Source: an uncultured Verrucomicrobiota bacterium
Lineage (GTDB): Bacteria > Verrucomicrobiota > Verrucomicrobiia > Palsa-1439 > CAZOTB01
DNA: 64,000 nucleotides
Reading direction: 5' to 3'
Assembly: GCA_964582645.1 (NCBI GenBank)
Contig: CAZOTB010000002.1
Span: 12,777 to 76,776 of the forward strand
Made by a program: the position numbers and the translations under genes. The notes under the pieces were generated by a model. It searched no databases. It worked only from the letters and a program-made list of their open reading frames with translations, and was not told the origin of the DNA. Below are positions 280 to 46,598 of this stretch, in pieces (positions within the stretch are counted from its first letter, which is position 1; every line of letters starts with the position of its first letter).

Positions 280-1797
280 ATGAAGAAGATCGCCCTCGTC
301 GGTTTCCTCCACGAAGCGCACAGCTTCGCGACGCAACTCACCAGCCTCGACCGTTTTCGCGAGCACCATTTTGCTTTCGGTCGCGAGGAGATGCGGAAGG
401 CAGCCGGCGTGTCCACGGAAACCGCCGGTGTGTTCGACACCGCGGAGAAACTCGGCTTTGAGCTCAAGCCGCTTTTCTACGCCTTTCCACTGCCCGGCGG
501 CATCATCACCGCCGATGCCTTCGAGTTTTTCCGCCAGAAGCTCGTCGAGGGACTCAAGGCAAACGCGCCGCTCGATGGCGTGATCCTGAACCTGCACGGC
601 GCCATGGTCGCCCAGAACGCGCCCGATGCAGAAGGCGAGTTTGCCCGGATCGCGCGCGCAACTGTCGGGCCGAACGTGCCGATCGTTTCCACACTTGATT
701 GCCATGGCAACGTCAGCGAGTTGATGGTGCGTTCGACCAACGCGTTGATCCCGTACGACACCAACCCGCACACCGACTGCTATCACCGTGGCGTGCAGGC
801 GGCGCAGTTGATGAAGGACATGCTCGACGGGAACGTGAAGCCGGTGACCGCGCTGGTGAAGCCGCCGCTGATCCCGATCCCGCAAAAGCAAAACTCCGCG
901 CAATCCCCGTGGCGGGACATCTGGTCGCTGGCGTTCGAGTTGGAGAAGCGACCGGGCGTGATCAACGTCGGCGTGCTGCCCGGGTTCAGTTATTCCGACG
1001 TGCCCGAGGTCGGCGTGAGCATCCTTGCAATCACGAACAACGATCCCAAACTCGCCCGCGAGATCGGCGAGGCTGTCGCGCGCAAAGCCTGGGAGTTGCG
1101 CGAGCAGTTCGTTCCGAGATTCCCAAAACCGGCCGAGGCGGTGCAGATGGCGATCCATGAGTCGAAATGGCCGGTCATTCTCGTGGACACCGGCGACAAC
1201 GTCGGCGGCGGCAGCGCGGCGGATGGAACGGTGTTGCTCTATCAATTGCTCCGCCAGAACGCCCGCGACGCGGTGATGATCATCCGCGACGCCGAGGTCG
1301 TCGAGAAATGCTTCGCGGCGGGCGTGAACGGCACCGTGAGCGCCAGTGTGGGTGCCAAGACCGACAAACTCCACGGCGAGCCTGTGTACGTGACTGGTCG
1401 CGTGAAGTTGCTGAGCGATGGCCGCTACATCAATCGCGGCCCGATGCACGGCATGGCGGAAGGGGTCGAGTGGCAGATGGGACGGTGCGCGGTGCTTGAG
1501 TGCCGGGGCGTCACGCTGCTGTTGACCGAGAACCGCGTCATGCCGATGAACATCTACCAGCTTCGCAGCCAGGGCATTCAACCCGAGTACTGCAAAATCA
1601 TCGTCGTCAAAGCCGCTGTGGCATTTCGGGCTTCATACGAGCCGGTCGCCGCGAAGATCATCGAGGTGGACACCCCCGGCCTGACCGCGGTGGATTTGGC
1701 GAAGTTCCCTTTTCGAAATCTGAAGCGCCGCTTGTTTCCGCTCCACGTGGATGCGACGTGGGAGGGTACCGAAGTTTTCGTGGAACCTGGAGCGTAA
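280..1797 (+). CDS. MlrC-family (M81) metallopeptidase-like protein, microcystinase C-like
   Basis: 505-aa ORF with an ATG start at 280. Length and sequence are typical of the DUF1485/MlrC C-terminal family. Confidence 0.75.
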   Translation: MKKIALVGFLHEAHSFATQLTSLDRFREHHFAFGREEMRKAAGVSTETAGVFDTAEKLGFELKPLFYAFPLPGGIITADAFEFFRQKLVEGLKANAPLDGVILNLHGAMVAQNAPDAEGEFARIARATVGPNVPIVSTLDCHGNVSELMVRSTNALIPYDTNPHTDCYHRGVQAAQLMKDMLDGNVKPVTALVKPPLIPIPQKQNSAQSPWRDIWSLAFELEKRPGVINVGVLPGFSYSDVPEVGVSILAITNNDPKLAREIGEAVARKAWELREQFVPRFPKPAEAVQMAIHESKWPVILVDTGDNVGGGSAADGTVLLYQLLRQNARDAVMIIRDAEVVEKCFAAGVNGTVSASVGAKTDKLHGEPVYVTGRVKLLSDGRYINRGPMHGMAEGVEWQMGRCAVLECRGVTLLLTENRVMPMNIYQLRSQGIQPEYCKIIVVKAAVAFRASYEPVAAKIIEVDTPGLTAVDLAKFPFRNLKRRLFPLHVDATWEGTEVFVEPGA

Positions 1798-3528: not shown

Positions 3529-4257
3529 TCAACTGTCCCGCAACTGATACGCGATGGCGTAGGCGCACTTGTGCGCGCCGCTGCGGTTGGTCTCGGCGCG
3601 ATGCCAGGTGTAGTTGGTGAAGAACGCCGCATCGCCCGGCGACATGGGGAGCAGCACTTCCTTCGAGAAATCAATCTGGTTGCGCGGAATCCGAAACCGC
3701 TGAAACGCCACGCCGTTGCTCGCGCTGTGGAAACTCGGTTCGTCGTAATACTGCTCGTGCGGCGTGAGTGTCCACGACTTGTGCGTGCCGGGGAGGATGG
3801 CCAGCGCGATGGCATCCTTGCCCACCTCGTCGAGCGCGATCCAGGAGTTGCAGCCCAGCTCGGGTTTGATGTGCCAGTAGTATGAGTCCTGATGGTAGAA
3901 CGATTGGCCGTCAATGGCCTTGTTCTTGATTAACGCCTGGTCCGTGAACCGTTTGACCGGCCCGCCGAGTAGTTGCGACATCGCGCCTTGCAGGTTGGGA
4001 TGGTCGGCGATGTGGCGAAAGACATCTTCATTCTTTGCCGGCTGTTGTACGCCGACGGGAATCATTTGTCCCCTGGCGTTCCGATACTTTGCGGGATCGA
4101 GCACTTGGAAGTGGGTCTTGCCCCATTCCGGCGAATCCTCGAGCAACTCCATGAGCCGGTTGCGGACGCGCGCCGCTTCTTCGCGCGAAATCAGGCCCCG
4201 CACGACTGTGTAGCCTTCCTCCTTGTACTGCTGCAATTGTGCTCCAGTGAGATTCAT
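3529..4257 (-). CDS. phytanoyl-CoA dioxygenase (PhyH) family protein, paralog
   Basis: 242-aa ORF showing PhyH-family similarity (HQDSYYW...H). It is tandem to the previous gene. Confidence 0.75.
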   Translation of the reverse strand: MNLTGAQLQQYKEEGYTVVRGLISREEAARVRNRLMELLEDSPEWGKTHFQVLDPAKYRNARGQMIPVGVQQPAKNEDVFRHIADHPNLQGAMSQLLGGPVKRFTDQALIKNKAIDGQSFYHQDSYYWHIKPELGCNSWIALDEVGKDAIALAILPGTHKSWTLTPHEQYYDEPSFHSASNGVAFQRFRIPRNQIDFSKEVLLPMSPGDAAFFTNYTWHRAETNRSGAHKCAYAIAYQLRDS

Positions 4258-4330
4258 CCTGGGTGTATGCTACCGAGCGCTCGCCGAAAGAGAATGGACA
4301 GCGTCCGCTGAAAAACTGTATTTTTTCAAC

Positions 4331-5197
4331 ATGCCCAAACGCCCGCCCATTCGCCCGCCGCGATTGCTGTTCGAGACGCGGCTTGGCTTGCGCCTGTTGT
4401 ACTGCGGACGGTTCGTCTGCAAACCCGACTGGCGGATCGAGTCGGACCGTCTCCCGAGCGGCATGATCGGATTTTTCTTCCTCGAACGGAACGGGTGCTG
4501 GTCGGAGGTCAACGGTCGGCGGTTGACCTTGAACGAGGGCGACCTGCAGGTGTTGCGCGCGGGCGACCTGCTCCGCATGGGGCACAACCCCGCCCGTCCA
4601 ATCACCGCATTGAGTCTCTCGCTCGCAGTCGAACAGGGAGTCGTGCCGAACATTCTGCTCCAGCGGAAGTTTGCCCGTCGTTACCGGATTCGCAATCGGC
4701 GCCGGTACGTGGAGTTGTTCGATGCGGTTCTGACCTCCTTGCAAAGTCCGCTCACCGTCCGCGATTGGGCCGTGTCGGGCGCCGTGCTGCAGTGGTTGGC
4801 GTACCTGCTCGACGAAACCGGCGCGCCGCTCTCCCCGCACACGGACCTGGCGGAGGGCACGATGGATCGGGTGTTGTTGGCCCAAGCCTGGGCCAGTGCC
4901 CGGCTTGCCGAGGTGCTGACTCTTGACGCGTGGGCGAAATCAGTCGGCTGGCATCCCGTTCACTTCGAGCGCGTGTTCAAACAGGAGACCGGCCTCACCC
5001 CGATGCGCTGGATCGAGGAGCGGCGCATGGAAGCGGCAAGACAATACCTCAGCGGTACCGCCAAGACCGTTGCCGAAATCGCCGAGGCGGTCGGATATCC
5101 CGATCCATTCTACTTCTCTCGCGTGTTCCGCAAACACTATGGTCACCCCCCGCTGCGGTACCGCAAGCTGGGCTTCGGTCTCAAGACGATGCCGTGA
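4331..5197 (+). CDS. AraC-family transcriptional regulator
   Basis: ATG at 4331 (MPKRPPIRPP). C-terminal AraC HTH (...AEIAEAVGYPDPFYFSRVFRKHYGHPPLRYR). Divergent from the PhyH pair. Confidence 0.7.
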   Translation: MPKRPPIRPPRLLFETRLGLRLLYCGRFVCKPDWRIESDRLPSGMIGFFFLERNGCWSEVNGRRLTLNEGDLQVLRAGDLLRMGHNPARPITALSLSLAVEQGVVPNILLQRKFARRYRIRNRRRYVELFDAVLTSLQSPLTVRDWAVSGAVLQWLAYLLDETGAPLSPHTDLAEGTMDRVLLAQAWASARLAEVLTLDAWAKSVGWHPVHFERVFKQETGLTPMRWIEERRMEAARQYLSGTAKTVAEIAEAVGYPDPFYFSRVFRKHYGHPPLRYRKLGFGLKTMP

Positions 5198-5873
5198 TTC
5201 GGCGCGCCCGATCCCGCAGGCGTTGAGGCACGGTTTCATCCAGCCAGAAGTAGTGCGCGGGAACGAATAGCTCGACATCAAAACCGACCAGCTTGCAGAG
5301 CGAGACTCTTACTTGCGCGGAGTCGTCGTTGAAAATCGGCGGCGGAAGCGCGATCCGCCATGAAACGGCAAAGACATCGCCGATGAAGAATACGCGTTTG
5401 GACTTCGAGTAGTAACCGATGTGCCCGTTGGTGTGGCCGGGGAGGGAAACGACGCGCAAGCCGCCCCAGAACGGAAGCTCGTCCCCGTCGCGCAGCCAGA
5501 CATCCACCTGGGGTACACGATAGCGCAGAGCGGCCCGACCCACTGCCTCCATCGCGTCGCACACGCGCGCAACGCCCCGGTAAGGATGGCGTCCCGCAAG
5601 ATGCAATTCATCGCCAACAGGCGCGTAGAGCTTCGCGCCGCTCCATTGTTGGAGGCGTGATGCGTTGAGAGTGTGATCAAGATGACCGTGGGTCAGGAGG
5701 ATGGCCTTGAGATCGGACGGGCTTCGACCGAGCGAGGTGATGGCGCGTTGAACGCGGCGGAAATCACCTATCAACCCGGTGTCCACCAACACCAGCTCGC
5801 TGTCGCTGACCAACAAATGCGTCAACACGCCCCAGCCGCGCACGGCGAAGAGATCAGGACGAAGCTGTTTCAC
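5181..5873 (-). CDS. MBL-fold metallo-hydrolase
   Basis: THGHLDHT (HxHxDH) motif. Confidence 0.75.
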   Translation of the reverse strand: MKQLRPDLFAVRGWGVLTHLLVSDSELVLVDTGLIGDFRRVQRAITSLGRSPSDLKAILLTHGHLDHTLNASRLQQWSGAKLYAPVGDELHLAGRHPYRGVARVCDAMEAVGRAALRYRVPQVDVWLRDGDELPFWGGLRVVSLPGHTNGHIGYYSKSKRVFFIGDVFAVSWRIALPPPIFNDDSAQVRVSLCKLVGFDVELFVPAHYFWLDETVPQRLRDRARRITASS

Positions 5874-6786
5874 GATGCGCTCGAATCACAGCGCCGTGAC
5901 GAAGGTTGCGGGCGCTGACGGTGATCTCGGAACTGCCAAGCGCCTGAATCCCTGTCACCAGAATGATCGTGCCCGCGACGATGATATCGGCGCGGCTGGG
6001 CGGAAGGCCGCGGAGTTGTTTGCGTTCGGCGAGCGGCATGGCGGCAAGCCGATCACGAAATTCGACTAGACGCTCCAGGCTGAAACGATGGCCGTCAATC
6101 GCCTTCGGTGCCGGCAACTCCAGTTTGAGATCCATCGAAGCGAGACAACTGATCGTGCCACCGGTGCCGAGGAGAGGAAATAAAGTGCTTGAGTGCCGAA
6201 GTGCTTGAGTGTTTGAGTGCAACGCTTGCAGCACGTGTTTTGTCATCGCAGACAGTTCGGCGTGCGAAGGCGGGTCGGATTTCATGAACAGTTCCGTCAT
6301 CCGCACGGCGCCGCAGTTGAGGCTCACCTTGAACTCGATGTGGCCGTGTCTGCCTCGGATGAACTCCATGCTGCCGCCGCCGATGTCGAATACGATTACC
6401 TCTCGGTCACGAAGTCCGGGATGGCTGGTGGCGCCGGTAAAGATCAGATCGGCTTCCTCGTTGCCGGAAAGAACACGGCAGTCGAAGCCCATCCGCTGGC
6501 GAAACGCGTCGAGGAAGGCGTCGCGATTCGACGCGTCGCGGACGGCGCTGGTGGCGAACGCGAGGAAACGCTCGGCCTTACGCTTCCGTGCTTGATCGCA
6601 GAAATCCTCGATCACTGCCAGCGTGCGTGAGATCGCTTCGGGGAGCAGATGCCCGTTGCTCGATACGCCCTGGCCGATGCGCGTGGTCTCGCTTGTTTCG
6701 AGCACCGGTCGCAGATCATTGCCGGCGCAGTCGGCCACCAGCAGTTTGACGGTGTTGGTGCCGATGTCGAGGACGGCGTAACGCAC
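5854..6786 (-). CDS. Ppx/GppA-family exopolyphosphatase / guanosine pentaphosphate phosphohydrolase
   Basis: N-terminal AVLDIGTNTVKLLV plus DIGGGS actin-like ATPase motifs of the Ppx/GppA family. Confidence 0.8.
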   Translation of the reverse strand: MRYAVLDIGTNTVKLLVADCAGNDLRPVLETSETTRIGQGVSSNGHLLPEAISRTLAVIEDFCDQARKRKAERFLAFATSAVRDASNRDAFLDAFRQRMGFDCRVLSGNEEADLIFTGATSHPGLRDREVIVFDIGGGSMEFIRGRHGHIEFKVSLNCGAVRMTELFMKSDPPSHAELSAMTKHVLQALHSNTQALRHSSTLFPLLGTGGTISCLASMDLKLELPAPKAIDGHRFSLERLVEFRDRLAAMPLAERKQLRGLPPSRADIIVAGTIILVTGIQALGSSEITVSARNLRHGAVIRAHRETASS

Positions 6787-7320: not shown

Positions 7321-9477
7321 ATGAGCAGAAGTCTGGGACGAATCTTCAGTGCGGGGGTGGCGGTTTTCCTCTGGATTGCCATCCTGCCGCTCCATGCCGA
7401 AATCGGGCCGACGGTCGAGTCGGGCCAGGTCGCGCAGGCGGTGGCGGCGCTTCTTGAGAAGAACCACTACAGCGGGCAAGCTTTGAACGACGAGGTCTCG
7501 CGACAGGTGTTCACAAACTACCTCGATGCGCTCGATCGCGACCATCTGATCTTCCTGCAGTCGGACGTGGATCGGTTCAGCGAGTTTGCGACCACCCTCG
7601 ATGACCACCTGATGGTGGGCAACCTGCGACCCGCGTTCGAGATTTTTGGCGTTTATACCAATCGCGTCGAGCAGTTCGTCGAGGCAGCCAAGGAGTTGGT
7701 GAAGGAAGAATTTCGGTTTGATGAGAACGATTCGATCCTGATTGACCGCAAGGAAGCGCCGCGGCCGAAGGACGAAGCCGAGGCGCGCCGGCTCCTGCGC
7801 CAACGTGTGAAGTTCCAGTTGCTCGAGGAACGGCTTGGGAAGGAAAAACCCGAGGAAGCGAAATCCATCGTGACCCGCCGGTACGAGCGCCTGGCGCGGA
7901 CAGTGCGCGAGGCGGACACGGAGTTCGTGCTCGATGTGTATCTGAACGCGTTCAGCCAGGCGTACGATCCGCATTCGCAGTACATGACGCCGTCGTCGCT
8001 CGACAATTTCACCATCAACATGCGGCTGTCGCTGACAGGCATCGGCGCGGTGCTGCGTTCGGATGACGGTTACGCCAAGATCGTCGAAATCATCCCGGGA
8101 GGTCCGGCCGACCTCGACAAGAAGCTGAAGCCCAACGATCGCATCTGCGCCGTGGCGCAGGGCGACGGCGAGTGGGTGGACGTGGTGGACATGAAGTTGA
8201 ACAAGGTGGTCGAGATGATCCGAGGGCCGAAGGGAACGGTTGTCCGGCTCAAACTCATCCCGGCGGACGCGTCGGATTCGTCGGTGCGTTCCGAACTGCG
8301 GCTGACGCGCGATGAGATCAAGCTCACCGAGCAGGAGGCGAAGGCGAAGATCGTCGAGAAAGCGGACGGAAACGGGAGGCTGCTGCGGTTGGGTTACATC
8401 GATTTGCCGTCGTTCTACGTGGACACGAAAAAGGGGCCGAACGCGAAGAGTTCGACGCGGGACGTGGCGAGGCTGCTGGAGAAGTTGAAGGCGGAGAAGG
8501 TGGACGGATTGGTGATGGACTTGCGCCGGAACAACGGCGGGTCGCTCACGGAGGCGATCTCGCTGACGGGCTTGTTCATCAAGGAGGGGCCGGTCGTGCA
8601 GGTCAAGGACTCGCATGGCAGGCAGATCACGCAACGCGACGACGACAGCGGGATCGCGTATGAAGGGCCGATGGTGGTGCTGGTGAGCCATCTCAGCGCG
8701 TCGGCGGCGGAGATTTTCTCGGCGGCATTGCAGGATTACGCGCGCGCGTTGATCGTGGGCGCGCAGAGCACGTTCGGCAAGGGAACGGTGCAACAGATTT
8801 TCGAACTGGATCGGGTGGTGGGATTTCGGAAGCCCACGAAAGATTCGAGCGGGGCGCTGAAATTGACGATCCAGAAGTTCTATCGCATCTCCGGCGGCTC
8901 CACGCAGGTGCGCGGCGTCGTTCCCGACATCCAGTTGCCCTCGGTGTTGGACAGCAGTCCCGTGGGCGAAGCGACGCTTCCGCATGCGTTGCCGTACGAC
9001 GAGGTGAAACGATCCGATTATCGTTCGTGGGGACTCGTGGGCGAGCATCTGTCGGAACTGCGGTTGCGTTGTGCGAAGCGGATTCTGAACAACGTGGAGT
9101 TCCGGTACGTGCGCGAGGACATGGATCTCGTGAAGAAGCGGCTCGAGGAAAAGACGGTTTCCCTGAACGAATCCAAGCGCGAGGCGGAGAAGAAAGCAAA
9201 CCTCGAGCGAAGGGAAGCGCGAAAGAAAGAACGACTAACGCGCAAGGATGAGCCATTGAAGGCCACCGAGATCACGCTGGCCACGCTCGACGGAAAGACA
9301 AATATGGTATCGGTGGCCAGGCGCCCGGCCCCCCAATCAGCCGCGAGCGAGGATGGGAGCGCAGAGGAAGCAGAAGTCAATGAGCCGGACATGGATCCGG
9401 TCTTCCGGGAAAGCTTTGAGATTTTGACGGACTACATTACCCTGAGTTCCGTCATGACCGCACGAGTGGAGAACTGA
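7321..9477 (+). CDS. carboxy-terminal processing protease (S41 family, Prc/Tsp-like) with PDZ domain
   Basis: ATG at 7321 followed by a signal peptide. PDZ region, S41 catalytic region (GAQSTFGKGTVQ), and a long charged C-terminal tail. Confidence 0.85.
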   Translation: MSRSLGRIFSAGVAVFLWIAILPLHAEIGPTVESGQVAQAVAALLEKNHYSGQALNDEVSRQVFTNYLDALDRDHLIFLQSDVDRFSEFATTLDDHLMVGNLRPAFEIFGVYTNRVEQFVEAAKELVKEEFRFDENDSILIDRKEAPRPKDEAEARRLLRQRVKFQLLEERLGKEKPEEAKSIVTRRYERLARTVREADTEFVLDVYLNAFSQAYDPHSQYMTPSSLDNFTINMRLSLTGIGAVLRSDDGYAKIVEIIPGGPADLDKKLKPNDRICAVAQGDGEWVDVVDMKLNKVVEMIRGPKGTVVRLKLIPADASDSSVRSELRLTRDEIKLTEQEAKAKIVEKADGNGRLLRLGYIDLPSFYVDTKKGPNAKSSTRDVARLLEKLKAEKVDGLVMDLRRNNGGSLTEAISLTGLFIKEGPVVQVKDSHGRQITQRDDDSGIAYEGPMVVLVSHLSASAAEIFSAALQDYARALIVGAQSTFGKGTVQQIFELDRVVGFRKPTKDSSGALKLTIQKFYRISGGSTQVRGVVPDIQLPSVLDSSPVGEATLPHALPYDEVKRSDYRSWGLVGEHLSELRLRCAKRILNNVEFRYVREDMDLVKKRLEEKTVSLNESKREAEKKANLERREARKKERLTRKDEPLKATEITLATLDGKTNMVSVARRPAPQSAASEDGSAEEAEVNEPDMDPVFRESFEILTDYITLSSVMTARVEN

Positions 9478-9490
9478 GGAGAATACGACC

Positions 9491-10129
9491 ATGAACCAAC
9501 CAAAGATCATGTGGTGCTGCATCCTTGCCGTGGGCGTGGCGCTGACCGGGGCCTGCTCGAAACGAGAGTCTGAGCCGCCAGCGGATTCGAAAACACCGAC
9601 CACATTGGAGAAACCTGCCACACCGCCGAAGACGACCACGACCAAAGCACCTACGAGCATGCCAAAAACGACCCAGTCGGGATCAACCAAGTCCCCGATC
9701 GCGCCACCCAAGACCTCTGCAACACCACAGAAGGCATCGTCCCTCGAAAAGGCCTATCACGAAGCGCCCGATGTACGGCAGAAGACGGACATCGTATACC
9801 GGCTGGGCGATATGGGTTCGCCCGAAGCCATCCTCGCGCTGGGGCGCATCTTCGAGACGGAAGGAGACGCGGAGTTGAAGGAGAACCTTCTCACGGCGCT
9901 CTGGGTGGTGGACGGTTACGACAAGGAGAAGATCCCGATCTACGCGATGGCAGTCCAGGCGAACCAGCCCGAGGAAGTGCGCAAGGAAGCGATTGACGGG
10001 CTGGGCGACCTCGAAGTGGTGGAGGCAATTCCGGTTCTGCAGTCGTTGATAAACGACCCCAACAAGGAAATCAGCGAAGCCGCCAAGGATGCAATCGAGA
10101 CGGTTCGATCGTCCTTAAGCGACAACTGA
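9491..10129 (+). CDS. lipoprotein with HEAT/PBS-lyase-type repeats
   Basis: Signal peptide with a lipobox (LTGAC), a P/T/K-rich linker, and C-terminal HEAT-like repeats. GAGGA Shine-Dalgarno upstream. Confidence 0.6.
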   Translation: MNQPKIMWCCILAVGVALTGACSKRESEPPADSKTPTTLEKPATPPKTTTTKAPTSMPKTTQSGSTKSPIAPPKTSATPQKASSLEKAYHEAPDVRQKTDIVYRLGDMGSPEAILALGRIFETEGDAELKENLLTALWVVDGYDKEKIPIYAMAVQANQPEEVRKEAIDGLGDLEVVEAIPVLQSLINDPNKEISEAAKDAIETVRSSLSDN

Positions 10130-10517: not shown

Positions 10518-10757
10518 ATGCGCTCCGAGACTGGCGGCGTCTTATCTCCTGATTCTCACCGCTGTGCAACGAGAAACTCCATACTTTCAATAGGATTCTC
10601 CACCGTCTGCCGCTGGGTGTTCGTGGCATCGGAAACGCTATTCCAGATGTGAGGATGTGTCGCAGAAATTCGCAGAACGCATGGAGATGGCGTGGCGTTC
10701 TTGGTGGCACAACCGTTGCTAAAACGGCAGGGACACTTTGTGGGAACGGGCGTAGCC

Positions 10758-11681
10758 ATGGAGACAAAAACCCAGGACAACGAGAAATTGCAACTGCTTC
10801 AGACCGTCGAAATGTTTGAAGCGGTCACGCAGGCGAATCCGGACGACTATCAGTCCCTCGAAATCCTCAAGGAAGCCTATGTCAAACTGGGACGCGACGA
10901 CGACAGCCACCGCGTTGCAAAGCAGGTCGCGCTGGCCCATTACAGCCTCGGTCAGTTCGCCAAGGCCATTCAGGAACACGAAGCCATTCTCAAGAAATGG
11001 CCGAATGATTCTGAGAGCAAGAAAGCCCTCAAGGAGCTTCGCGAGCGATCAAAAGACGGCGATGCGGTCACGCAGGCAGCAACGCCCGATGCCATCGAGC
11101 ATCTTCCAACCAACCGTTCTACCGGCAAGGATAGTGAAGAGCTGCTCTGTGATCTGATCGTCAAACGAGCTTCCCGTCTCAAACAGAATTTGGGCGATCC
11201 CGACGGCGACGAAGTGCTGTGCGAACTCATCGTCAAACACAACCTTCTGAAGGAAAAAGACGTCATGGATGTTCTCCATGGCGTGCAGGGCCAAAACGCG
11301 CAGATGAATTCGGACTCGATTCGGGTTCATCTGGTGCAGGGGTTCAGCGACCGCGGGTTGCTGTCGCCGGAACAGTTGCTGGCTTTTATCACGGAGAAAA
11401 CCACGTTGGCGTATATTCCTCTCACGATTTACGACGTGGTGCCCGATATCGTGCGGTTGCTGCCACGCGACATCGCGTTCAGGCACTGCATCATTCCGTT
11501 CGATCGGATCAGCCGCACCCTGTTGATGGCCTCGGCGAATCCATTCGACGAACCCGCCAAAAAAGCCGCGGAGAAGGCGCTCGATTACAACCTGCAATGG
11601 TACGTCTGTAACCCCGCCGAGATCACCCAGGTACTCAAGGACGTGTACCTGATCGGCAAAGCCAGCACGAAAGACGACTAA
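10758..11681 (+). CDS. TPR-like plus GspE_N (T2SSE N-terminal / MshEN-like) domain protein
   Basis: ATG at 10758 (METKTQDN). N-terminal TPR-like helical repeats. C-terminal region (...LCDLIVKRASRL...LCELIVKHNLLKEKDVMDVL...IPFDRISRTLLMASANPFDE...) resembles the N-terminal domain of GspE/PilB/MshE ATPases. Lies 13 nt upstream of the ATPase gene. Confidence 0.6.
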   Translation: METKTQDNEKLQLLQTVEMFEAVTQANPDDYQSLEILKEAYVKLGRDDDSHRVAKQVALAHYSLGQFAKAIQEHEAILKKWPNDSESKKALKELRERSKDGDAVTQAATPDAIEHLPTNRSTGKDSEELLCDLIVKRASRLKQNLGDPDGDEVLCELIVKHNLLKEKDVMDVLHGVQGQNAQMNSDSIRVHLVQGFSDRGLLSPEQLLAFITEKTTLAYIPLTIYDVVPDIVRLLPRDIAFRHCIIPFDRISRTLLMASANPFDEPAKKAAEKALDYNLQWYVCNPAEITQVLKDVYLIGKASTKDD

Positions 11682-11693
11682 TAGACGCTTGTC

Positions 11694-13403
11694 ATGAAAT
11701 CTTTTGGCGAACGCATCGCAGACCTGCTGATCGAAGAGGGATTCCTCCTGGCGGAGCAACTCCAGGAAGCAATCACCATCCAGAAAAAGGAGGGCGGCCG
11801 TCTGCTCAAGATCCTCCAGGAGAAGAAGTACGTCTCCGAAGAGGACATGATGATCAGCATCGGCCGTTGCCTTGGCTGTTCGCCGGTGAATCTCGCGCGC
11901 ATGCGCATCCCGCCCGAGACGCTGCAGATCATCTCGAAAGAGATGGCGAAAAATTACAATCTCGTGCCCGTGGCCAAGATCGGCAACCGTCTGTTCGTGG
12001 CCATGGCCGACCCGATGAACGTCATCGCGCTTGACGATTTGCGTCAGGCGACCGGTCTGAACATCGTGCCGATGATCAGCACCGAAAAGGCGGTGTCGGA
12101 CTGCTTGAACAACATCCATGCTCAGATGAAGGGGAGCATGGAGGAAATTCTCAAAGACACCGACGTGCCCGATCTCGAACTGACCAAGGACAGCCAGGAT
12201 GAGATCAACCTGGACAAGCTTGTCGAGGGATCCGAGGAAGGCCCGGTCATCAAGATCGTCAACCTGCTGCTCGTCCAGGCCATCAAGGACCGGGCGAGCG
12301 ATATCCACATCGAGCCATTCGAGAAGAAAGTCCGACTGCGCTACCGCATTGACGGCGTGTTGTACGACAGCACCGCGCCGCCGAAGTTCATGCAGCACTC
12401 GATTTCGTCGCGCATCAAGATCATGGCCAACCTCGACATTGCGGAACGCCGTCTGCCACAGGACGGTCGCTTCCGCATCAAGATCGCGGGACGCGAGGTG
12501 GATCTCCGTGTTTCCTTGCTGCCGACGGTCCACGGAGAGAAGATCGTCATGCGTGTGCTCGACAAAGGCTGCCTGGCGTCGAGCCTCGAAAGCCTGGGCA
12601 TGGACGAACACACCCTGGGGCGGTTCCGCGATGCGATTGATTCGCCGCACGGCATGTTGCTGGTCACGGGACCGACCGGTAGCGGCAAGACCACCACGCT
12701 TTACTCGGTGCTGCAGGAGCTGAATTCACCCGAGTACAACATCGTCACCGTCGAAGACCCGGTCGAGTATCAGCTCAACGGCATCAACCAGGTCCAGGTC
12801 AAACCCGAGATCGGTCTGACTTTCGCCAGCGGTCTGCGTTCGATTCTGCGCCAGGACCCCGACATCGTGATGGTGGGCGAAATCCGTGACAACGAAACCG
12901 CCGACATCGCGGTCAAGGCGGCCCTCACCGGCCACCAGGTGCTCTCCACGTTGCACACAAACGATGCCGCGGGTGCCATCGCGCGTTTGATTGACATGGG
13001 TATCGAGCCGTTCCTGGTTTCCTCCTCCATCATCATGACGTGTGCGCAACGACTTCTCCGCAAGATTTGTCCGCACTGCAAGGAGCCGGTCGTGGCTCCG
13101 AAGTCGTTGCTCGATCGCCTCAAGCTCAAGATCGAGCCCGGCGAAAAGGTCGAATTCTACCGTGGGCGCGGATGCGATCGCTGCAAAAAGACCGGCTTTC
13201 TCGGACGTGCCGCCATCATCGAAGTGCTGCGTTGCAGCGAAGGCATCCGTCAACTCATCGTCAACGATGGCAAGGCGTTCGAGATCAAGAAACTCGCGCT
13301 CGAGGAGGGTATGAGGACGTTGCGCATGGCCGGGATCCTCAAGGCCCGCGAAGGCATCACCTCACTCGAGGAAGTTTTCCGCGTCACTGCTGCGGATGAA
13401 TGA
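11694..13403 (+). CDS. GspE/PilB-family secretion/pilus-assembly ATPase
   Basis: 569 aa with Walker A GPTGSGKTTT, Asp box, His box, tetracysteine CPHC...CDRC, and an N-terminal GspE_N domain. Confidence 0.9.
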   Translation: MKSFGERIADLLIEEGFLLAEQLQEAITIQKKEGGRLLKILQEKKYVSEEDMMISIGRCLGCSPVNLARMRIPPETLQIISKEMAKNYNLVPVAKIGNRLFVAMADPMNVIALDDLRQATGLNIVPMISTEKAVSDCLNNIHAQMKGSMEEILKDTDVPDLELTKDSQDEINLDKLVEGSEEGPVIKIVNLLLVQAIKDRASDIHIEPFEKKVRLRYRIDGVLYDSTAPPKFMQHSISSRIKIMANLDIAERRLPQDGRFRIKIAGREVDLRVSLLPTVHGEKIVMRVLDKGCLASSLESLGMDEHTLGRFRDAIDSPHGMLLVTGPTGSGKTTTLYSVLQELNSPEYNIVTVEDPVEYQLNGINQVQVKPEIGLTFASGLRSILRQDPDIVMVGEIRDNETADIAVKAALTGHQVLSTLHTNDAAGAIARLIDMGIEPFLVSSSIIMTCAQRLLRKICPHCKEPVVAPKSLLDRLKLKIEPGEKVEFYRGRGCDRCKKTGFLGRAAIIEVLRCSEGIRQLIVNDGKAFEIKKLALEEGMRTLRMAGILKAREGITSLEEVFRVTAADE

Positions 13404-13543
13404 TCGTCCCCGCAGCAGCCTGCGCGGATCCGGTCCCAGTGAATCTCCATTGTGCTGATCCCTCTTGGTGTGCGCGAGCGGCAGCCGCGCTCGTGGCATA
13501 ACGGCTGCTAAAAATACATCATCGAACGCAGAAGCAACTGTCT

Positions 13544-15622
13544 ATGAACCTCTCATTTTTCAGGCGATGGAAGACCCAGCCAGCCGCAGCGTCACCCGCA
13601 GTCACCGAAAAGTCTGCCTGTGCCACGAGTGCCACGGAAACAGCGACCGCCACCTTGGCTGGTGACGCGGACACCACTGTTGAGTGCCTGGAGATGCCGT
13701 GGGAGACGGTGCTGCCGTTGTTGCCGCAGTCCGCGGTGCGCACCACCGGGAACACAGACCTCACCACGCGCGTCCGTCTGCCGCTCAAGCAGATTCTTCC
13801 GCAATTGTCCAAGGGACGGGTTGTTGTTCCACTGAGCGATCTGCTTTCGCAGTTACCCGCGGAACTGCGTACCACGACGGGACCGCACTCGGGCACGGAA
13901 AAGATCTCACTTCCGATCGAACAGGTCGTGGCAAATCTGTCGCCCGAGGCGTTGCAGGCGCGTTCCGACCAGCGCGAGATTGAGATCGAGGAAAGCGAAA
14001 TCCCGGTACCATTCACCGAAGAACCGCGCCACGCCAGTCTGCTGGACGGGGAAGGGCCTCTCGTTCTCGATCCCCCGGCAACACGAACTGCCCAAGTAGC
14101 CGAGCCCGTTCCGCAGGCGCGGCAGGTGGAGCCTCCAACGACAACGGACGCTGCGGAAATGCCATCCATCCGAATTCCTCTGATCGAACCGGCTGCCATC
14201 CGTGATGTTGCGCCGCCGACTCCGACGCCTGCGCAGCCGTCCGCTCAGGGCGGGGAGGCGGTCAAACCATGGATATACCTCACGCTTGCGAGCGTGCTGG
14301 ACAGCATTCCCAACAACGCGCTGGCCGCCGACCGTGAACTGATCCGGTCGCAGGTGGACGGGAGCTACCAGATTCCCGTGCAGGCAGACCAGATCATCGG
14401 TCAGCTCAGCAAAGGTCGTATCGAACTCGACCTCGGCAAGCTGGCGAGCAAATTCCCCGAAGGCGTGCTCATTCCGAACGCGAACGGGCAGATCACGCTC
14501 GGCGTGGACAAAGTGATTGATCAACTCCCCGCGAACGTGTTTTCGCAGGACACAGAAGCCGAGGCACCTGGTCCGACGTTCCAAGACATTCCCGATCCAT
14601 TCCGCGAGACCAACCGGGCGACGCAGCCCGCGACACCGACCGTCAAGGAAACGCCGCCGCCGGCTTGTATCGAAGCACCGCCGGCACCACAAGCAACGGA
14701 AGCGATCGCCGAGCAGGATATTCCGCAGATACTATTTGCGCCCGTGACACCACCTCCCGCTGCAGAGCCGGTCTCCGAGACCACACCGGTGCCCAGCGAA
14801 CCGCGCGTTGAATTGCCATGTCAGACTGTGCCGGTGGTCGGGCCCGTGGCATCTGCGCCGGTCGAGCCGCCTGCGGCCGAATCGCCTGCAGAGCCGGTGG
14901 CCGAGCAAGAACTCGACGATCTGGATTCCATCGAGACGACGACCGAGCCGGTAGCGAGCGCTACGGAGCCGCCCCAACGTCGCGTGTCCGCCGAGGAGAT
15001 TGCCAGGGCGTTGAACGATGTCAACGCGTGGACCGCGGAGGACTTCCATCGCCACACGCTTGGACCGACTTTGAGCCAGCGCATCATCGCCTATCGCACG
15101 CAGCGTGGTGGATTCCAGAGCCTGCGTGAGCTGCTGCAAATCGGCGGCATCGGCCCACGCGTGTTCGAGAAGGTTCTCGGCTTCAGTCCAAGCGCGCTCG
15201 AAGACGAAGCGCATGCAATCAATCGCCTCTTGGGCGTTCCGTGCGACCACGAGATGTCGCTGCAGGAAATCGTCAAGTGCGCGAGCCAGTTGCCGGGCGT
15301 CGAAGGCTGCATCGTGGCGATGGGCGACGGACTCTACATGACGGGCGAGCTGCCCGGACACATGGATTCACAGCGCGTCAGCGCGTTCGCGCCGCAATTG
15401 TTTGGACGCGTGGCGCAGTACGTCCGCGAACTCAACGTCGGCACCGCACGCCGGTTGACGATCTTCACCGACGCCCAGCCGATCACGATTTTCAAGGCGA
15501 ACGATCTGTTCTTCATCGTCATTCACAAGGCCAACCGGTTCTCGAAGGTCTTGTTGAACAAGTGCGAACGGATCAGCCAGGAAATTTCCCGAATTTGCTC
15601 CAAGGAGACTGCGAAAGAATAG
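13544..15622 (+). CDS. large proline/threonine-rich protein with ComEA-type helix-hairpin-helix and C-terminal Roadblock/LC7-like domain
   Basis: 692-aa ORF. Long low-complexity P/T/E/A-rich region with two copies of a QLSKGR(V/I) motif. HhH near aa 480-540 (VNAWTAEDF...LLQIGGIGPRVFEKV). C-terminal approx. 120 aa match the Roadblock pattern (QLPGVEGCIVAMGDGLYMTGELPG...ITIFKANDLFFIVIH). Start choice is uncertain (no clear Shine-Dalgarno). Confidence 0.55.
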   Translation: MNLSFFRRWKTQPAAASPAVTEKSACATSATETATATLAGDADTTVECLEMPWETVLPLLPQSAVRTTGNTDLTTRVRLPLKQILPQLSKGRVVVPLSDLLSQLPAELRTTTGPHSGTEKISLPIEQVVANLSPEALQARSDQREIEIEESEIPVPFTEEPRHASLLDGEGPLVLDPPATRTAQVAEPVPQARQVEPPTTTDAAEMPSIRIPLIEPAAIRDVAPPTPTPAQPSAQGGEAVKPWIYLTLASVLDSIPNNALAADRELIRSQVDGSYQIPVQADQIIGQLSKGRIELDLGKLASKFPEGVLIPNANGQITLGVDKVIDQLPANVFSQDTEAEAPGPTFQDIPDPFRETNRATQPATPTVKETPPPACIEAPPAPQATEAIAEQDIPQILFAPVTPPPAAEPVSETTPVPSEPRVELPCQTVPVVGPVASAPVEPPAAESPAEPVAEQELDDLDSIETTTEPVASATEPPQRRVSAEEIARALNDVNAWTAEDFHRHTLGPTLSQRIIAYRTQRGGFQSLRELLQIGGIGPRVFEKVLGFSPSALEDEAHAINRLLGVPCDHEMSLQEIVKCASQLPGVEGCIVAMGDGLYMTGELPGHMDSQRVSAFAPQLFGRVAQYVRELNVGTARRLTIFTDAQPITIFKANDLFFIVIHKANRFSKVLLNKCERISQEISRICSKETAKE

Positions 15623-15631
15623 AAGGAAGCC

Positions 15632-16288
15632 ATGTCCATCATCAACTACGCCAGCAAGGAAATTCAATTCAAGATCGTCTTCTACGGTCCCGCGCTCTGC
15701 GGCAAGACGACCAACCTCTCGTACATTCACTCCCAGATCAATCCCGACAACCGCGGCGATCTCGTGTCGCTGGCGACGGCGGCGGACCGGACGTTGTTCT
15801 TCGACTTCCTTCCGCTGCACGCGATCACGATCAAGAACTTCAAGACCAAGTTCCAGCTCTACACCGTGCCCGGGCAGGTCATCTACAACACGACGCGCCA
15901 GCTCGTGCTGCGGAGCGTGGACGGCATCGTGTTCGTCGCCGACTCGCAGTGGGACAAGATGGAGGAGAACATCGAGAGCTTCCGCAACCTCGAAGACAAC
16001 CTGGCGAAACAGAACCTGAAAATTGACGATGTGCCGTACGTGTTGCAGTTCAACAAACGCGACCTGCCGCGGATCGCGCCGACGCACTACCTGAATTACC
16101 TGCTCAACAACCGCAAAGTGCGCGTGCCCAGCTTCGAGGCGTGCGCCACCTCCGGCAAGGGCGTGTTCGACACGCTCAACATGATCTCGCGTCTGGTGCT
16201 GCTCAAGTTCACCAAGGAAAGCGACCAGCAATCCGCCGCCGCCGCCAAACGTCCAGCGCCCAAGCCGCTGGCGACCACGCACGTCTGA
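15632..16288 (+). CDS. mglA: Ras-like small GTPase MglA
   Basis: 218 aa. [29 protein letters not shown]... closely matches Myxococcus MglA ([29 protein letters not shown]). Arginine finger DRTLFFDF and VPGQ present. GAAGGA Shine-Dalgarno upstream. Confidence 0.9.
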   Translation: [218 protein letters not shown]

Positions 16289-16318
16289 TCGCACCGCACT
16301 CCAGGAAGCACGCATCAC

Positions 16319-16792
16319 ATGGACGCCATCCCGGTTCTCGGCCTGGAAGAAGTCGCGCAGATTGACGCGGTGCTCAACGAGTACCTCGACAAGTCGGAGG
16401 CCGACCTCGCCGTGGTGCTCGACAAGGGCGGCAACATCATCTCCCAGCAGGGCGAACGCAACACCGCCCATCTGGCGATTGTGGCCGCGTTGGCCGCAGG
16501 ATCGTTTGCCGCAACCAAGGAACTCGCCAGCCGCATCGGCGAGCCGGAGTTCAGCGCGCTGTACCACCAGGGCAAGAATGGGCACGTGTTCATGAACGCC
16601 GTGGACGAGAATACCGTCCTGCTCACGGTGTTCTCCGGCAAGACCACGGTGGGGCTGATTCGGTTCTACTCGGTCAGTTGTGCCCGCAAGCTTCAGCAAA
16701 TCCTCGATCGACTCCGCACCCAGCCGCAACGCAGCCGCTTCACGCTCACCGTCGCCGACATTCAGAAAGCCGGCTCGCTGTTCCAGAGCTGA
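16319..16792 (+). CDS. mglB: MglB, Roadblock/LC7 GTPase-activating protein for MglA
   Basis: 157-aa Roadblock/LC7 protein immediately downstream of mglA. VVLDKGGNIISQQG...VLLTVFSGKTTVGLIRF resembles M. xanthus MglB (VFLVDKNGQLISSAG...VVLVVIFDNRTSLGLVRL). Confidence 0.85.
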   Translation: MDAIPVLGLEEVAQIDAVLNEYLDKSEADLAVVLDKGGNIISQQGERNTAHLAIVAALAAGSFAATKELASRIGEPEFSALYHQGKNGHVFMNAVDENTVLLTVFSGKTTVGLIRFYSVSCARKLQQILDRLRTQPQRSRFTLTVADIQKAGSLFQS

Positions 16793-16889
16793 GTCGCCCG
16801 CGCGGCAGTGAATTCCCTGGAGTCTGCCACGTCGTAAAGGCAGGGCACCTGTGCTGCCATTTGCAAACCCGGCATCTGTTTGCTACAGA

Positions 16890-17693
16890 ATGTCCAATCG
16901 AACCATGACGCTCAGACCTATATTGACCTTACTGGCTGCCGGCATTGGCCTGCAGGCTCCCATCGGATGCGCCGACAACACCAACAGTCCGCCTCCGGCG
17001 AAAGTCGCCGCGGAGCAGCCGGGGACGGCCGCCGCTACAACTACCACCGCGCCTCCTGCGACAGTTGCTGACACGAACCTGCCCACAATGGAAGTCGCCC
17101 AAGCGGTCATGGTGACAGTCGAACTCGATTTCGGGACGAACGTTCCGTCCATTGCCGAAGGACTGCGCGAGGTCGAACGCAAGTATCAGCCCGACGACGG
17201 CAAGGGACGCACGTTCGCCATTCTCGACGCCTACGGCCAACCGACGCCCGATGGGAAGAAACTCCACATGTCCATGCACGTCAGCACCGAGAAGCCGGGG
17301 ATTGGCGAACTGGTCTTCAAGCGCACGGGCGAAGTGTTGTGGAAGAATCGCATCCTCCCCGCGACCAAACCGCCTTCGTCCTCGTTCGCGGGCAAGGGCT
17401 TGACCATCATGGTCGCCGACGACAAGGGCAAGGCGCGTGTGTTGAACGGCACCAAGGTGAAAAACTCGATCTTCGAAGCCACGCTCAACGACAGCGGCGA
17501 ACCGCTCGACGTGTTCTGGCCCGAGGGCGAGGAGCGCGAGGTGACCATGATCTACAGCTCATGCGGTTGTCCCGTGAAAGCGATGGCCCGCCGACAGGGA
17601 GACAAGACCGTCCGCACGAAGGACACGCCCGTAATCTTCCCCGACGACCTCGCCGTGGCCGCCACGATCAACAAGCTGATGGGATGGAAGTAG
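16890..17693 (+). CDS. hypothetical secreted/lipoprotein
   Basis: ATG at 16890 (MSNRTMTLRPILTLLAAGIGLQAPIGC) gives a signal peptide with cysteine. Confidence 0.5.
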   Translation: MSNRTMTLRPILTLLAAGIGLQAPIGCADNTNSPPPAKVAAEQPGTAAATTTTAPPATVADTNLPTMEVAQAVMVTVELDFGTNVPSIAEGLREVERKYQPDDGKGRTFAILDAYGQPTPDGKKLHMSMHVSTEKPGIGELVFKRTGEVLWKNRILPATKPPSSSFAGKGLTIMVADDKGKARVLNGTKVKNSIFEATLNDSGEPLDVFWPEGEEREVTMIYSSCGCPVKAMARRQGDKTVRTKDTPVIFPDDLAVAATINKLMGWK

Positions 17694-35585: not shown

Positions 35586-36236
35586 TTGCACACTCTCGGC
35601 CAAACAAGGGAAGGCGAATCACATGCGCCGAACGATCACGCGATTGACTGGATCCCGGTTGAGCGCCAGCAGGAAAAAGCACTCCATGGCCTCGTCCGAC
35701 TCGATTGGAAAGGACACCGCTTCTTGATCGCCACTGACTGTGCCTTCAGCGACGACGCCATGGATTCCCTCGCCACCCACGACCTGCGGGCGGAGGTGCT
35801 CGTCGTCCCAGGACGACTCGGACCGTCAGATCGTCCGGCTCAAGCCAGGTACCACGACCTGCTCCGAGCGTTGATCCCCGCCGCAAACCCGGAACTCATC
35901 GTCCTGTGCGACGGTGACCCGTCCCTCTTTTCCGCCACACTCGCGGTTTGCCGGACCGCGTGCCAAGCCCCCGTGCTCTCCACCCGGCTGACGGGTGCCC
36001 TGACCTTCAGCTTGACGCCGGACCGCACACTGGTCATCAGCCCCTATCACCCGAACAGCAAACCCGTTCGGCTCTCGCCGCGCCGGTCACCTCACGACTC
36101 TTTACAACCTTCAGCCCTCGACATTAAACCCCGCCACAGTGCCGATCGCCCTGTAAACAGCCCGTTTCTCGGTCCGGTACTCACGACCCGAAACGCAGCC
36201 TCAGAACAACACGGCGGGACGCATCCAGAGGAATAG
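35586..36236 (+). pseudogene. degenerate ComEC/Rec2-like MBL-fold C-terminal remnant (TTG start in track)
   Basis: The pattern GHRFLIATDCAFSDDAMDSLATHDLRAEVLVVPGRL...ELIVLCDGDPSLF aligns to the end of the ComEC MBL domain (LltGDie..E..L....advLkvpHHGS...aviS.G..N.yghPh). The metal-binding His residues are lost (HHGS -> PGRL) and the N-terminal MBL motifs are absent. Confidence 0.3.
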
Positions 36237-36238
36237 CC

Positions 36239-37075: not shown

Positions 37076-37324
37076 CTATTTTATAAACTTTTAAATAGAT
37101 TATTTTCTTCGATTACTTATGAGAAAAGGTTGTTTGTTAATGAGAGGGATGTGTTAGTTGTCGTAGCCGCGTGGGGTGAGAGCAGCTTCTCATGCAGAAA
37201 TGTCGGGCTTGGTGCATACCTCCGATCATTGGTGCCATTCGAGTAATTCGTGGCTACAGTCTGCTCCATGACCTCCCCATCACGATCCTTGTGAATCGGC
37301 TTCAATAGGATTAGAGTATGCCCG

Positions 37325-40896: not shown

Positions 40897-42036
<1,140 letters not shown>

Positions 42037-46594: not shown

Positions 46595-46598
46595 AAGA

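Follow-up and report, generated by a model that had tools for sequence, protein, structure and literature searches.

A conserved Verrucomicrobiota gene cassette joins MglA/MglB polarity genes to the gene of an undescribed multidomain scaffold protein that ends in a Roadblock domain

In the genome of an uncultured Verrucomicrobiota bacterium, five adjacent genes, here called g1 to g5, place a PilB-type ATPase next to an MglA/MglB polarity system and a previously undescribed multidomain Roadblock scaffold protein, which carries a new and abundant protein domain. The genes lie at positions 10758..16792 of the window, by which we mean the whole stretch of 64,000 nucleotides that was analysed (GenBank assembly GCA_964582645.1, contig CAZOTB010000002.1, positions 12,777 to 76,776 of the forward strand). 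The MglA/MglB pair is a model system for GTPase-driven bacterial cell polarity, and to our knowledge Myxococcus is the one case in which its route to the pilus motor has been described. The cassette is real and conserved. The five proteins were identified, the anatomy of the scaffold g3 was resolved, the gene order was found to be kept in relatives, and two of the pairings were found to recur in other arrangements. We lean, with modest confidence, towards the view that the cassette is one functional unit in which g3 may physically couple the MglA/MglB switch to PilB. The five open reading frames (ORFs) are as follows.

10758..11681, + strand: g1, 307 amino acids (aa), with tetratricopeptide repeat (TPR)-like repeats and a paralogue of MshEN, the PilB N-terminal domain
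11694..13403, + strand: g2, 569 aa, a PilB-type extension ATPase
13544..15622, + strand: g3, 692 aa, with modules, acidic Pro-rich linkers, a helix-hairpin-helix (HhH) domain and a Roadblock domain
15632..16288, + strand: g4 (mglA), 218 aa, a Group-1-type Ras-like GTPase
16319..16792, + strand: g5 (mglB), 157 aa, a single Roadblock domain, candidate cognate GTPase-activating protein (GAP) of MglA

An earlier annotation made from the sequence alone (the first-pass annotation) had described five tightly spaced genes on the same strand, and all of the ORFs were recovered where it had placed them, with intergenic gaps of 12, 140, 9 and 30 nt. The codon-position GC pattern of all five is typical of real genes in this 61% GC genome. 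When we scanned one genome per species with an alignment of the closer subfamily and two peptide patterns, a procedure that reaches the close subfamily only, 33 related loci were found, with 45-54% identity in the C-terminal region of g3; all come from Verrucomicrobiota metagenome-assembled genomes except one, which is binned as Terracidiphilus. The order g1-g2-g3-mglA-mglB is kept in every related locus that is long enough to show all five genes. The same order is present in about 30 of the 33 species-level Verrucomicrobiota genomes and in metagenome contigs, and about 40 Verrucomicrobiota loci keep it with differing flanks. The arrangement, on whose conservation in relatives the first-pass annotation had staked its proposal, is thus kept across Verrucomicrobiota, and its assignment of the DNA to the Planctomycetes-Verrucomicrobia-Chlamydiae (PVC) lineage is right, since all named relatives are Verrucomicrobiota. 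When all neighbouring genes were clustered, only the five cassette genes were universally kept, and the window's own flanks were shared with no relative. The cassette stands in at least four flanking contexts, namely the window, loci L001/L031, the L003 type and L008/L044 (L001/L002, L003 and L008 keep the cassette). A Chthoniobacterales-type variant has the identical five-gene order with a scaffold that lacks the HhH domain, and its MglB cluster alone holds 436 members at 90% identity; this form of the cassette is frequent in the sampled metagenomes.

The centre of the cassette is g3, whose parts follow one another in the order of a short N-terminal motif MxhSFF(R/K), a first module, an acidic Pro-rich linker, a second module, a long acidic Pro-rich linker, the HhH domain and the Roadblock domain. 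Homologues of 640-850 aa from Verrucomicrobiota show the same domain order.

13685..14038, + strand: g3 module 1 (aa 48-165), with a core (aa 48-135) of four β-strand/short-helix units and an acidic tail ending in IPVPFTEE
14270..14623, + strand: g3 module 2 (aa 243-360), which duplicates module 1 according to hhalign and the module alignment and ends in IPDPFRE
14990..15223, + strand: g3 (HhH)2 domain of the ComEA/HHH_3 type (PF12836), aa 483-560
15239..15622, + strand: g3 Roadblock/LC7 domain (PF03259), aa 566-692

The N-terminal two thirds of g3 had been taken for a low-complexity linker, a description that does not hold, because this part contains two folded, duplicated modules of about 110 aa, which define the family and are its most widespread element. 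AlphaFold2 (AF2) folds both module cores, aa 48-135 and aa 243-330, with a predicted local distance difference test score (pLDDT) of about 90 (90-94 over aa 243-330), and predicts the regions around them to be disordered; the alignment of the g3 family likewise shows two conserved N-terminal blocks. The term "proline-rich" applies to the linkers (18-21% Pro, net charges of -10 and -20) and not to the rest of the protein. The module matches no Pfam family and no solved structure. No transmembrane (TM) segment or signal peptide was found in g3 (maximum KD19 value 1.13) or in any family member, which argues that g3 is cytoplasmic, and a periplasmic ComEA was ruled out as the identity of g3 for want of an export signal. 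The N-terminal motif, M-x-h-(S/P)-F-F-(R/K)-x-x-K at 13544..13573, is kept in all g3 homologues (MNLSFFRRWK, MRLPFFRSSK, MTIPFLDLFKK) and might be a membrane-targeting or partner-binding peptide, given that relatives of g3, here called class D, carry a membrane anchor of three or four helices at the same end. Database names for g3 stay at the domain level: JGI calls it "predicted regulator of Ras-like GTPase activity", and NCBI "helix-hairpin-helix domain-containing protein". Full-text literature searches turned up no account of g3, of its module or of the cassette, and g3 is thus undescribed, as first proposed.

The C-terminal part of g3 had been assigned a ComEA-type HhH followed by a Roadblock domain, and both score above the Pfam gathering threshold (GA): HHH_3 with 42.4 bits (GA 27) at aa 492-547 and Robl_LC7 with 27.0 bits (GA 23) at aa 577-660. 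In the AF2 model of aa 478-692 (mean pLDDT 92.5), the Roadblock domain has the topology α-β-β-α-β-β-β-α. A Foldseek search of the PDB with this domain gave the Asgard Roadblock 9jue_A (1.4e-7, target-normalised template modelling (TM) score 0.88) and also 1veu_B (LAMTOR2/p14) and 6hjm (MglB), the target-normalised TM scores to Roadblock, p14 and MglB structures ranging from 0.70 to 0.88. The C-terminus thus scores as a Roadblock fold by Pfam, model confidence and structural similarity alike, a point on which the first-pass proposal had been made to depend. Within the domain a DG pair is conserved, and SAFAPQLF and CERISQE are motifs specific to the family. MglC is absent from the top 50 Foldseek matches of the domain.

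The HhH domain is a genuine ComEA-type (HhH)2, which AF2 models as helical with pLDDT above 90, and the matches of the g3 family profile include ComEA (4e-14) and EEPD1 (5e-20). The HHH_3 score and the ComEA match, together with the fact that both hairpins are canonical in about half of the HhH-bearing relatives, where the domain is also basic (charge +3 to +7), would suit a g3 that is chiefly a DNA-binding protein, either a cytoplasmic ComEA-like DNA-uptake factor or a nucleoid tether of a Roadblock GAP platform that lets MglA-GTP survive only at nucleoid-free poles. The effect of mglA or mglB deletion on pilus functions and competence in Thermus (Salzer 2015, as cited in the review PMC12024867) points the same way; for Thermus mglAB deletions the review itself reports only mislocalised pili, and the placement of MglAB in Thermus pilus loci, which the first-pass annotation had mentioned, could not be confirmed from it. 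Such a function nevertheless appears quite improbable to us. First, without a signal peptide or membrane anchor g3 is no periplasmic DNA receptor. Second, g3 stays below the ComEA family cut-offs (TIGR01259 comEA, 35 versus 152; TIGR00426, 30.4 versus 53.1). Third, among the top 146 module proteins a g3-type Roadblock forms the C-terminus in 103, whereas an HhH domain is present in only 45, and it is missing altogether from the Chthoniobacterales-type class. Finally, the first hairpin in the window is degenerate (HTLGPT) and only the second is canonical (GGIGP), with a net charge of -2; acidic domains with degenerate hairpins are found in the window's subclade and in the variant B loci described below (charge -3 to -10). 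Since the HhH domain is missing in most relatives and is acidic and degenerate in the window's subclade, we regard a DNA-centred function as a minority reading. The "DNA-binding-type HhH" of the first-pass annotation is therefore correct as a domain assignment and not as a core feature. Judged from its sequence, the domain appears to be a lineage-specific insert that may bind DNA in those relatives with the basic canonical form and is probably not central to the function in the window.

The GTPase g4 was compared with MglA of Myxococcus xanthus, with whose structures it aligns over residues 1-195 (6h17; 3e-67), and it matches Pfam Arf with 33.8 bits (cut-off 22.3). The catalytic signatures are intact, as had been reported: the P-loop GPALCGKT, the intrinsic Arg finger R53 in ADRTLFF, T78 and Q82 in YTVPGQ, and NKRD, with R53, T78 and Q82 aligning residue for residue with M. 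xanthus MglA. Group 1 MglA proteins have been defined as single-domain Ras-like GTPases of <240 aa with a P-loop, an NKxD motif, an intrinsic Arg finger, a TVPGQ motif with Thr for the usual Asp and an MglB within four genes (Wuichet and Sogaard-Andersen 2014, PMC4316618); g4 shows every one of these sequence features, and mglB starts 30 nt downstream. The same survey, published in 2014, listed only Group 5 MglA for Verrucomicrobia, so that Group 1 MglA is now seen in Verrucomicrobiota beyond what was recorded then. At its C-terminus, g4 has a 23-residue Ala/Pro/Lys-rich tail (aa 196-218, 16220..16288) that is absent from M. xanthus MglA. We counted as MglB any single Robl_LC7 protein of 129-179 aa with similarity to a characterised MglB, and g5 has this size, domain content and similarity: it scores 48.7 bits against Robl_LC7, matches M. 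xanthus MglB (6h5b) at 6e-16, to which it is recognisably orthologous, and matches Thermus thermophilus MglB at 5e-9, which bears out its naming as mglB. It lies below the cut-off of NCBIfam NF052242 (66.1 versus 200 bits), a model built on the Thermus lineage. By every sequence criterion that could be applied, g4 and g5 are MglA and MglB family members, and GAP activity is predicted for g5.

The two genes upstream of g3 supply the pilus side of the cassette. The first-pass annotation called g2 a GspE/PilB-type ATPase, in agreement with its Pfam matches (T2SSE, 473 bits; MshEN, 62 bits). Its N-terminus bears a cyclic di-GMP (c-di-GMP)-type MshEN motif at aa 7-52, the MshEN/N1 domain spans aa 61-144, and the ATPase core follows; the Walker A sequence GPTGSGKT and the tetracysteine CPHC...CDRC can be read from the translation. 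The c-di-GMP motif, a tandem of the 24-residue RLGxxLLxxGLLxxxxLxxxLxxQ, scores 40.3 against NF053729 (cut-off 38); by eye, its motif I is good and its motif II is degenerate. The best PDB matches are full-length PilB proteins of type IVa pili (T4aP; 564 bits), from Geobacter (2e-168) and Myxococcus (1e-166). The other gene, g1, has an alternative upstream GTG start at 10692, and the start at 10758 is favoured because homologues measure 300-311 aa. Its helical TPR-like repeats (aa ~10-100) precede a PilB-N/MshEN paralogue (aa ~150-300) that scores 44.1 bits in Pfam (GA 23.1) and has its best PDB match in residues 7-140 of M. xanthus PilB (1.8e-8). The earlier description of g1 as a TPR plus GspE_N protein therefore stands for the MshEN part, while the repeats are better called TPR-like, as they fall just under GA (TPR_19, 22.7 versus 25; TPR_14, 22.0 versus 23.5). 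The c-di-GMP motif is absent from g1: NF053729 is not among its matches at E<=0.1, and inspection by eye shows other residues where the key Arg, Gly and Gln would stand.

The module of g3 extends far beyond the cassette. When its family was sized by an exhaustive HMMER search with the module profile, 1,588 representative clusters (50% identity) were obtained at E<=1e-3 and 749 at E<=1e-10; a word-indexed search with this profile recovered nothing but short pieces of the family. Protein lengths span 180 to 2,283 aa, and each protein bears one to seven modules. Class D proteins start with three or four TM helices, carry three to seven modules and end in a region without annotation; in 31 of them, Pfam found no family except one receiver domain, and their C-termini match the g3 Roadblock only weakly, hhalign giving no more than two suggestive matches of about 97 columns (E 5e-4 and 1.4e-3, probabilities 32% and 17%).

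The gene contexts of these proteins recombine the partners found in the cassette. Three loci that we call variant B (L005-L007) contain a g3-like gene, mglA and mglB without PilB, with a divergent PATAN+FHA gene upstream and two Flp pilins directly after mglB. In L046, a protein with four modules, HhH and Roadblock adjoins divergently transcribed mglA (1e-95 to g4 of the window) and mglB (2e-25 to g5); PATAN and FHA proteins lie nearby, and PilB is again absent. Conversely, L045 has the order ExeA-like ATPase, TM protein, class D scaffold, TPR, coiled-coil, g1-like, PilB, PilC, the g1-like protein having 528 aa and a phmmer match of 3e-18 to g1 of the window, and no mglAB lies within 17.7 kb. 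The first of these L045 genes (4043..5977), two genes upstream of the class D scaffold, encodes an ExeA/GspA-like protein (AAA_22 + PG_binding_1) that JGI names "putative secretion ATPase (PEP-CTERM system associated)". The order in L047 begins with TPR, class D scaffold, TM protein, a standalone 114-aa g3-type Roadblock (3.6e-7), MglA (1.7e-82) and MglB (4.9e-27), and continues with two PATAN proteins, a second small GTPase, PilM, PilN (a faint match), two unannotated genes and an AMIN-bearing PilQ secretin. Within L047, the TPR protein (563..1510) has a C-terminus that looks Roadblock-like by eye, one PATAN protein (8845..10101) has a faint Roadblock match, and the second small GTPase (10578..11069) is a divergent protein of 163 aa with an Arf match. 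We know of no described system in which the set of GTPases, Roadblock and PATAN proteins beside pilMNOPQ approaches this size.

Module proteins thus associate with mglAB where PilB is absent, and with g1-like, PilB and PilC genes where mglAB is absent. The first pairing is independent of PilB, because L005-L007 and L046 keep both partners without it, and the second shows that the modules associate with the pilus side independently of the GTPase, because L045 pairs class D with g1-like, PilB and PilC in the absence of mglAB. Moreover, L047 encodes the scaffold and the g3-type Roadblock in two genes of one cluster and the window has them fused, which by a Rosetta-stone argument suggests that they interact.

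The persistence of the g3-mglA-mglB triad without PilB in L005-L007 and L046 would also be expected if g3 acted only in the GTPase cycle, as a polar landmark combined with an MglC-like or co-GAP/GEF-like (GEF, guanine nucleotide exchange factor) regulator that never touches PilB or g1. PilB and g1 would then be effectors, encoded nearby, that bind MglA-GTP directly, with the TPR part of g1 acting like SgmX of Myxococcus, a TPR protein that, according to PMC7519303, serves as an MglA-GTP effector. The g3-type Roadblock always immediately precedes mglA (9 nt away in the window, and in the same position in L047), and the acidic Pro-rich linkers recall RomR (PMC10329633), both of which agree with a role confined to the GTPase. 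On the other hand, class D stands with g1-like, PilB and PilC and with no mglAB within 17.7 kb in L045, and the modules are the most conserved and most repeated element of these proteins (1-7 copies), a pattern that multivalent partner binding fits better than a landmark alone. Weighing these points, we consider a g3 restricted to the GTPase cycle unlikely, though it is the alternative that deserves the most attention.

Based on these observations, we suggest the following model for physical coupling by g3. The g3 Roadblock would dimerise and stack on, or pair with, the Roadblock dimer of MglB, in the manner of MglC on MglB or of Ragulator on the C-terminal domains of Rag, and MglA would influence this contact through its nucleotide state. 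The two modules with their acidic IPxPFxE tails, held on flexible acidic Pro-rich linkers, would bind the pilus side. The likeliest partners there would be the TPR-like part of g1 (short acidic peptides are typical ligands of TPR domains) and/or the MshEN N-domains present in both g1 and PilB. As a paralogue of the PilB N-domain without an ATPase, g1 may serve as an adaptor or regulator of PilB docking. PilB would thereby be recruited or released at a cell site set by MglA-GTP and MglB, so that the GTPase would control the placement or activation of the extension motor, and c-di-GMP may enter as a second input via the MshEN motif of PilB itself.

This model has parallels in the M. xanthus polarity module, where MglB is likewise accompanied by another Roadblock protein and where the disordered regions of a scaffold are acidic and rich in Pro (PMC10329633); the window differs in its gene order, which is Roadblock-scaffold, mglA, mglB. 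In M. xanthus, MglC sits between RomR and MglB, and MglA-GTP breaks it away from MglB; for stacked Roadblock dimers that sense the nucleotide state of a GTPase, Ragulator-Rag is a precedent (PMC10329633). The "MglC/RomR-like" scaffold of the first-pass annotation is apt as an analogy only. MglC is a single-domain homodimer of about 120 aa, whereas the g3 Roadblock is the C-terminus of a 692-aa protein and, apart from the common superfamily fold, has no detectable sequence relationship to it. RomR has an N-terminal receiver domain, whereas g3 has no Response_reg match at E<=0.1 and carries two novel modules in its place; the Pro-rich linker and acidic region common to both are a resemblance of composition only.

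In M. xanthus, MglA acts on PilB via SgmX, a TPR protein, and SopA, a scaffold with a novel fold (PMC7519303, PMC7668184, PMC11580455). SopA consists of novel folded domains split by a disordered linker, is essential for polar PilB, and has homologues reported only in Myxococcales (PMC11580455). The SgmX/FrzS/SopA route to PilB follows the same logic of GTPase, TPR protein, cytoplasmic scaffold and PilB as our model, with SopA compared by its description only. Furthermore, PATAN proteins co-occur with SgmX in Myxococcus (PMC11580455) and with g3-type proteins in L005-L007, L046 and L047. The systems differ in that SgmX is a separate TPR domain protein while g1 fuses a few sub-GA TPR-like repeats to a PilB-N-domain paralogue, so that the analogy is functional, and in that the connecting genes SgmX, FrzS and SopA are dispersed in M. 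xanthus while the cassette genes are adjacent.

Ragulator, ComEA and the two-MglB systems were compared as well. The closest structural matches of the g3 C-terminus, the Asgard Roadblock and LAMTOR2/p14 of Ragulator (LAMTOR), agree at the level of the fold only, given their 13-21% identity; Ragulator-Rag also serves another cellular process, and the cassette has no GTPase-Roadblock fusion of the Rag type. With ComEA, g3 shares the (HhH)2 domain above the Pfam GA but is cytoplasmic, lacks an export signal and anchor, scores below the family cut-offs, has in the window an acidic domain with a degenerate first hairpin, and belongs to a family most of whose members lack the domain. The two-MglB (1:2) MglA systems (PMC4316618) likewise combine one MglA with two Roadblock proteins, one of them outside the MglA-coevolving clade; they have, however, a Group 3 MglA without the intrinsic Arg finger and small single-domain MglBs together with a receiver/wHTH-like protein, whereas the window has a Group 1 MglA and a large scaffold. 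Taken together, g3 may work like RomR, MglC and SopA, yet by sequence it falls outside the RomR, MglC and ComEA families.

Several findings weigh against the coupling of g3 to PilB, and here they need to be considered. First, the link between the two proteins is drawn from gene neighbourhood alone. Second, the g3 Roadblock has no BLAST similarity to MglB of the window, and no MglC chain of the PDB was matched either by the family profile (E<=1) or by the standalone Roadblock of L047 (E<=10), where the presence of an MglC entry in the PDB copy searched was not confirmed; since the domain thus resembles neither MglB nor MglC in sequence, MglC-like stacking is an analogy. Third, a scan of the cassette for promoters and terminators gave chance-level counts and nothing in the intergenic gaps, so that co-transcription is only predicted. 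Fourth, no PilC, PilM, PilN, PilO or PilT gene adjoins the cassette in the window, and a lone secretin is 25 kb away. In module-protein loci elsewhere, PilC follows PilB (L045) and PilM, PilN and PilQ are present (L047). Fifth, g2 misses the NCBIfam PilB model TIGR02538 by about 11 bits (664.9 versus 675.65) and passes the GspE model TIGR02533 (650.2 versus 630.25). Finally, the wider synteny is common to many of the 33 loci, so that these are not 33 independent observations, and the independent contexts number roughly six to eight.

The fifth of these findings is what would be seen if g2 were a type II secretion motor (GspE) and the cassette positioned or gated a secretion machine rather than pili. 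A pseudopilin-like gene at 36239..37075 in the window and the ExeA/GspA-like AAA+PG_binding protein with which L045 begins can be counted in the same direction, as can the general richness of PVC genomes in pseudopilin-like genes. The GspE structure, however, reaches only 441 bits against g2 and leaves the N-terminal region uncovered, while the 564-bit match to T4aP PilB is full-length; g2 has a c-di-GMP motif of the MshE/PilB type; PilM, the faint PilN match and the AMIN-bearing PilQ-type secretin of L047 form a T4aP signature; and JGI labels g2 and its relatives PilB. A secretion motor is accordingly an improbable identity for g2.

The synteny finding bears on whether there is a functional unit at all. 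If the gene order were merely inherited within one clade and g3 were an unrelated multidomain protein, loci as phylogenetically close as those among the 33 with common upstream and downstream genes would look as they do. The cassette nevertheless keeps its composition in at least four flanking contexts, the same partners recur rearranged in L045, L046 and L047, and the occurrence of scaffold and Roadblock as one gene in the window and as two in L047 speaks for their interaction. An absence of any functional unit is therefore disfavoured, and we give it hardly any credence, whereas coupling of MglA/MglB to PilB by g3 is still the reading towards which we lean.

The surroundings of the cassette were also examined. 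Upstream lie a Tsp protease and a HEAT lipoprotein, downstream a lipoprotein-like ORF of unknown type and a thioredoxin reductase, none of them motility-related; the lipoprotein-like ORF (g6, 16851..17693) was considered as a sixth member and rejected, being conserved in no relative. In about 17 loci, including L001, L013, L015, L016, L021-L023, L025, L029, L031 and L035-L039, one TadG-like and two TadE-like pseudopilin genes stand directly after mglB on the opposite strand, convergent to the cassette. They were likewise rejected as members of the unit, because they are absent from the window and from otherwise identically syntenic loci. Together with the Flp pilins of variant B, these neighbours may point to a link with Tad/Flp pili besides PilB. 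Two loci show damaged copies: in L041 (8001-8222) the g3 homologue is cut down to a C-terminal remnant of about 143 aa and no mglB was detected, which may be real decay, and in L044 (8001-10243) the g3 and mglA homologues are broken into several short ORFs, most likely an artefact of frameshifts from long-read assembly.

Beyond the cassette, the pilus genes of the window are confined to the following two.

41915..44482, + strand: secretin of 855 aa with Secretin and three Secretin_N domains, without adjacent pilus or type II secretion genes
36239..37075, + strand: 278-aa ORF with a prepilin-type N-terminus and a C-terminal "LFADGH" tail, in the low-GC stretch 36001..38000

The neighbours of the secretin at 39539..40858 and 41007..41522 have no Pfam match. 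The product of 36239..37075 presumably resembles the PVC-type pseudopilin-like (H-X9-DG) proteins, and its region may be recently acquired or fast-evolving, since its GC content is 47.7% against about 61% in the rest of the window. On the - strand, 45155..51575 encodes a 1,658-aa protein (Dockerin, Calx-beta, two PA14, He_PIG, GLEYA, CHRD and DUF1800) and then a DUF1501 protein. No Rfam RNA family was found in the window.

The cassette sets a switch, a candidate coupler, an adaptor and a motor side by side in a phylum other than that of Myxococcus, so that asking how a small GTPase acts on a pilus ATPase becomes a matter of pairwise binding. It also brings to light a new abundant protein domain without structural relatives and a new class of multidomain Roadblock proteins. 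More tentatively, and with less confidence than we place in the coupling itself, the module could define a large unrecognised scaffold family that ties small-GTPase/Roadblock switches to type IV pilus machines, with g3 merging in a single chain the roles that in Myxococcus fall to RomR as a polar disordered scaffold, to MglC as a Roadblock adaptor to MglB and to SopA as a PilB recruiter. Such a family would exist in a soluble form, with modules, an optional HhH domain and a Roadblock domain, and in the membrane-anchored form of class D. In that case g3 would tether MglA/MglB directly to the PilB motor in a manner that depends on the GTP state, and pilus polarity based on MglA would be widespread in Verrucomicrobiota. 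Given how frequent the Chthoniobacterales-type cassette is in the sampled metagenomes, the system may matter for the surface behaviour of major uncultured bacteria.

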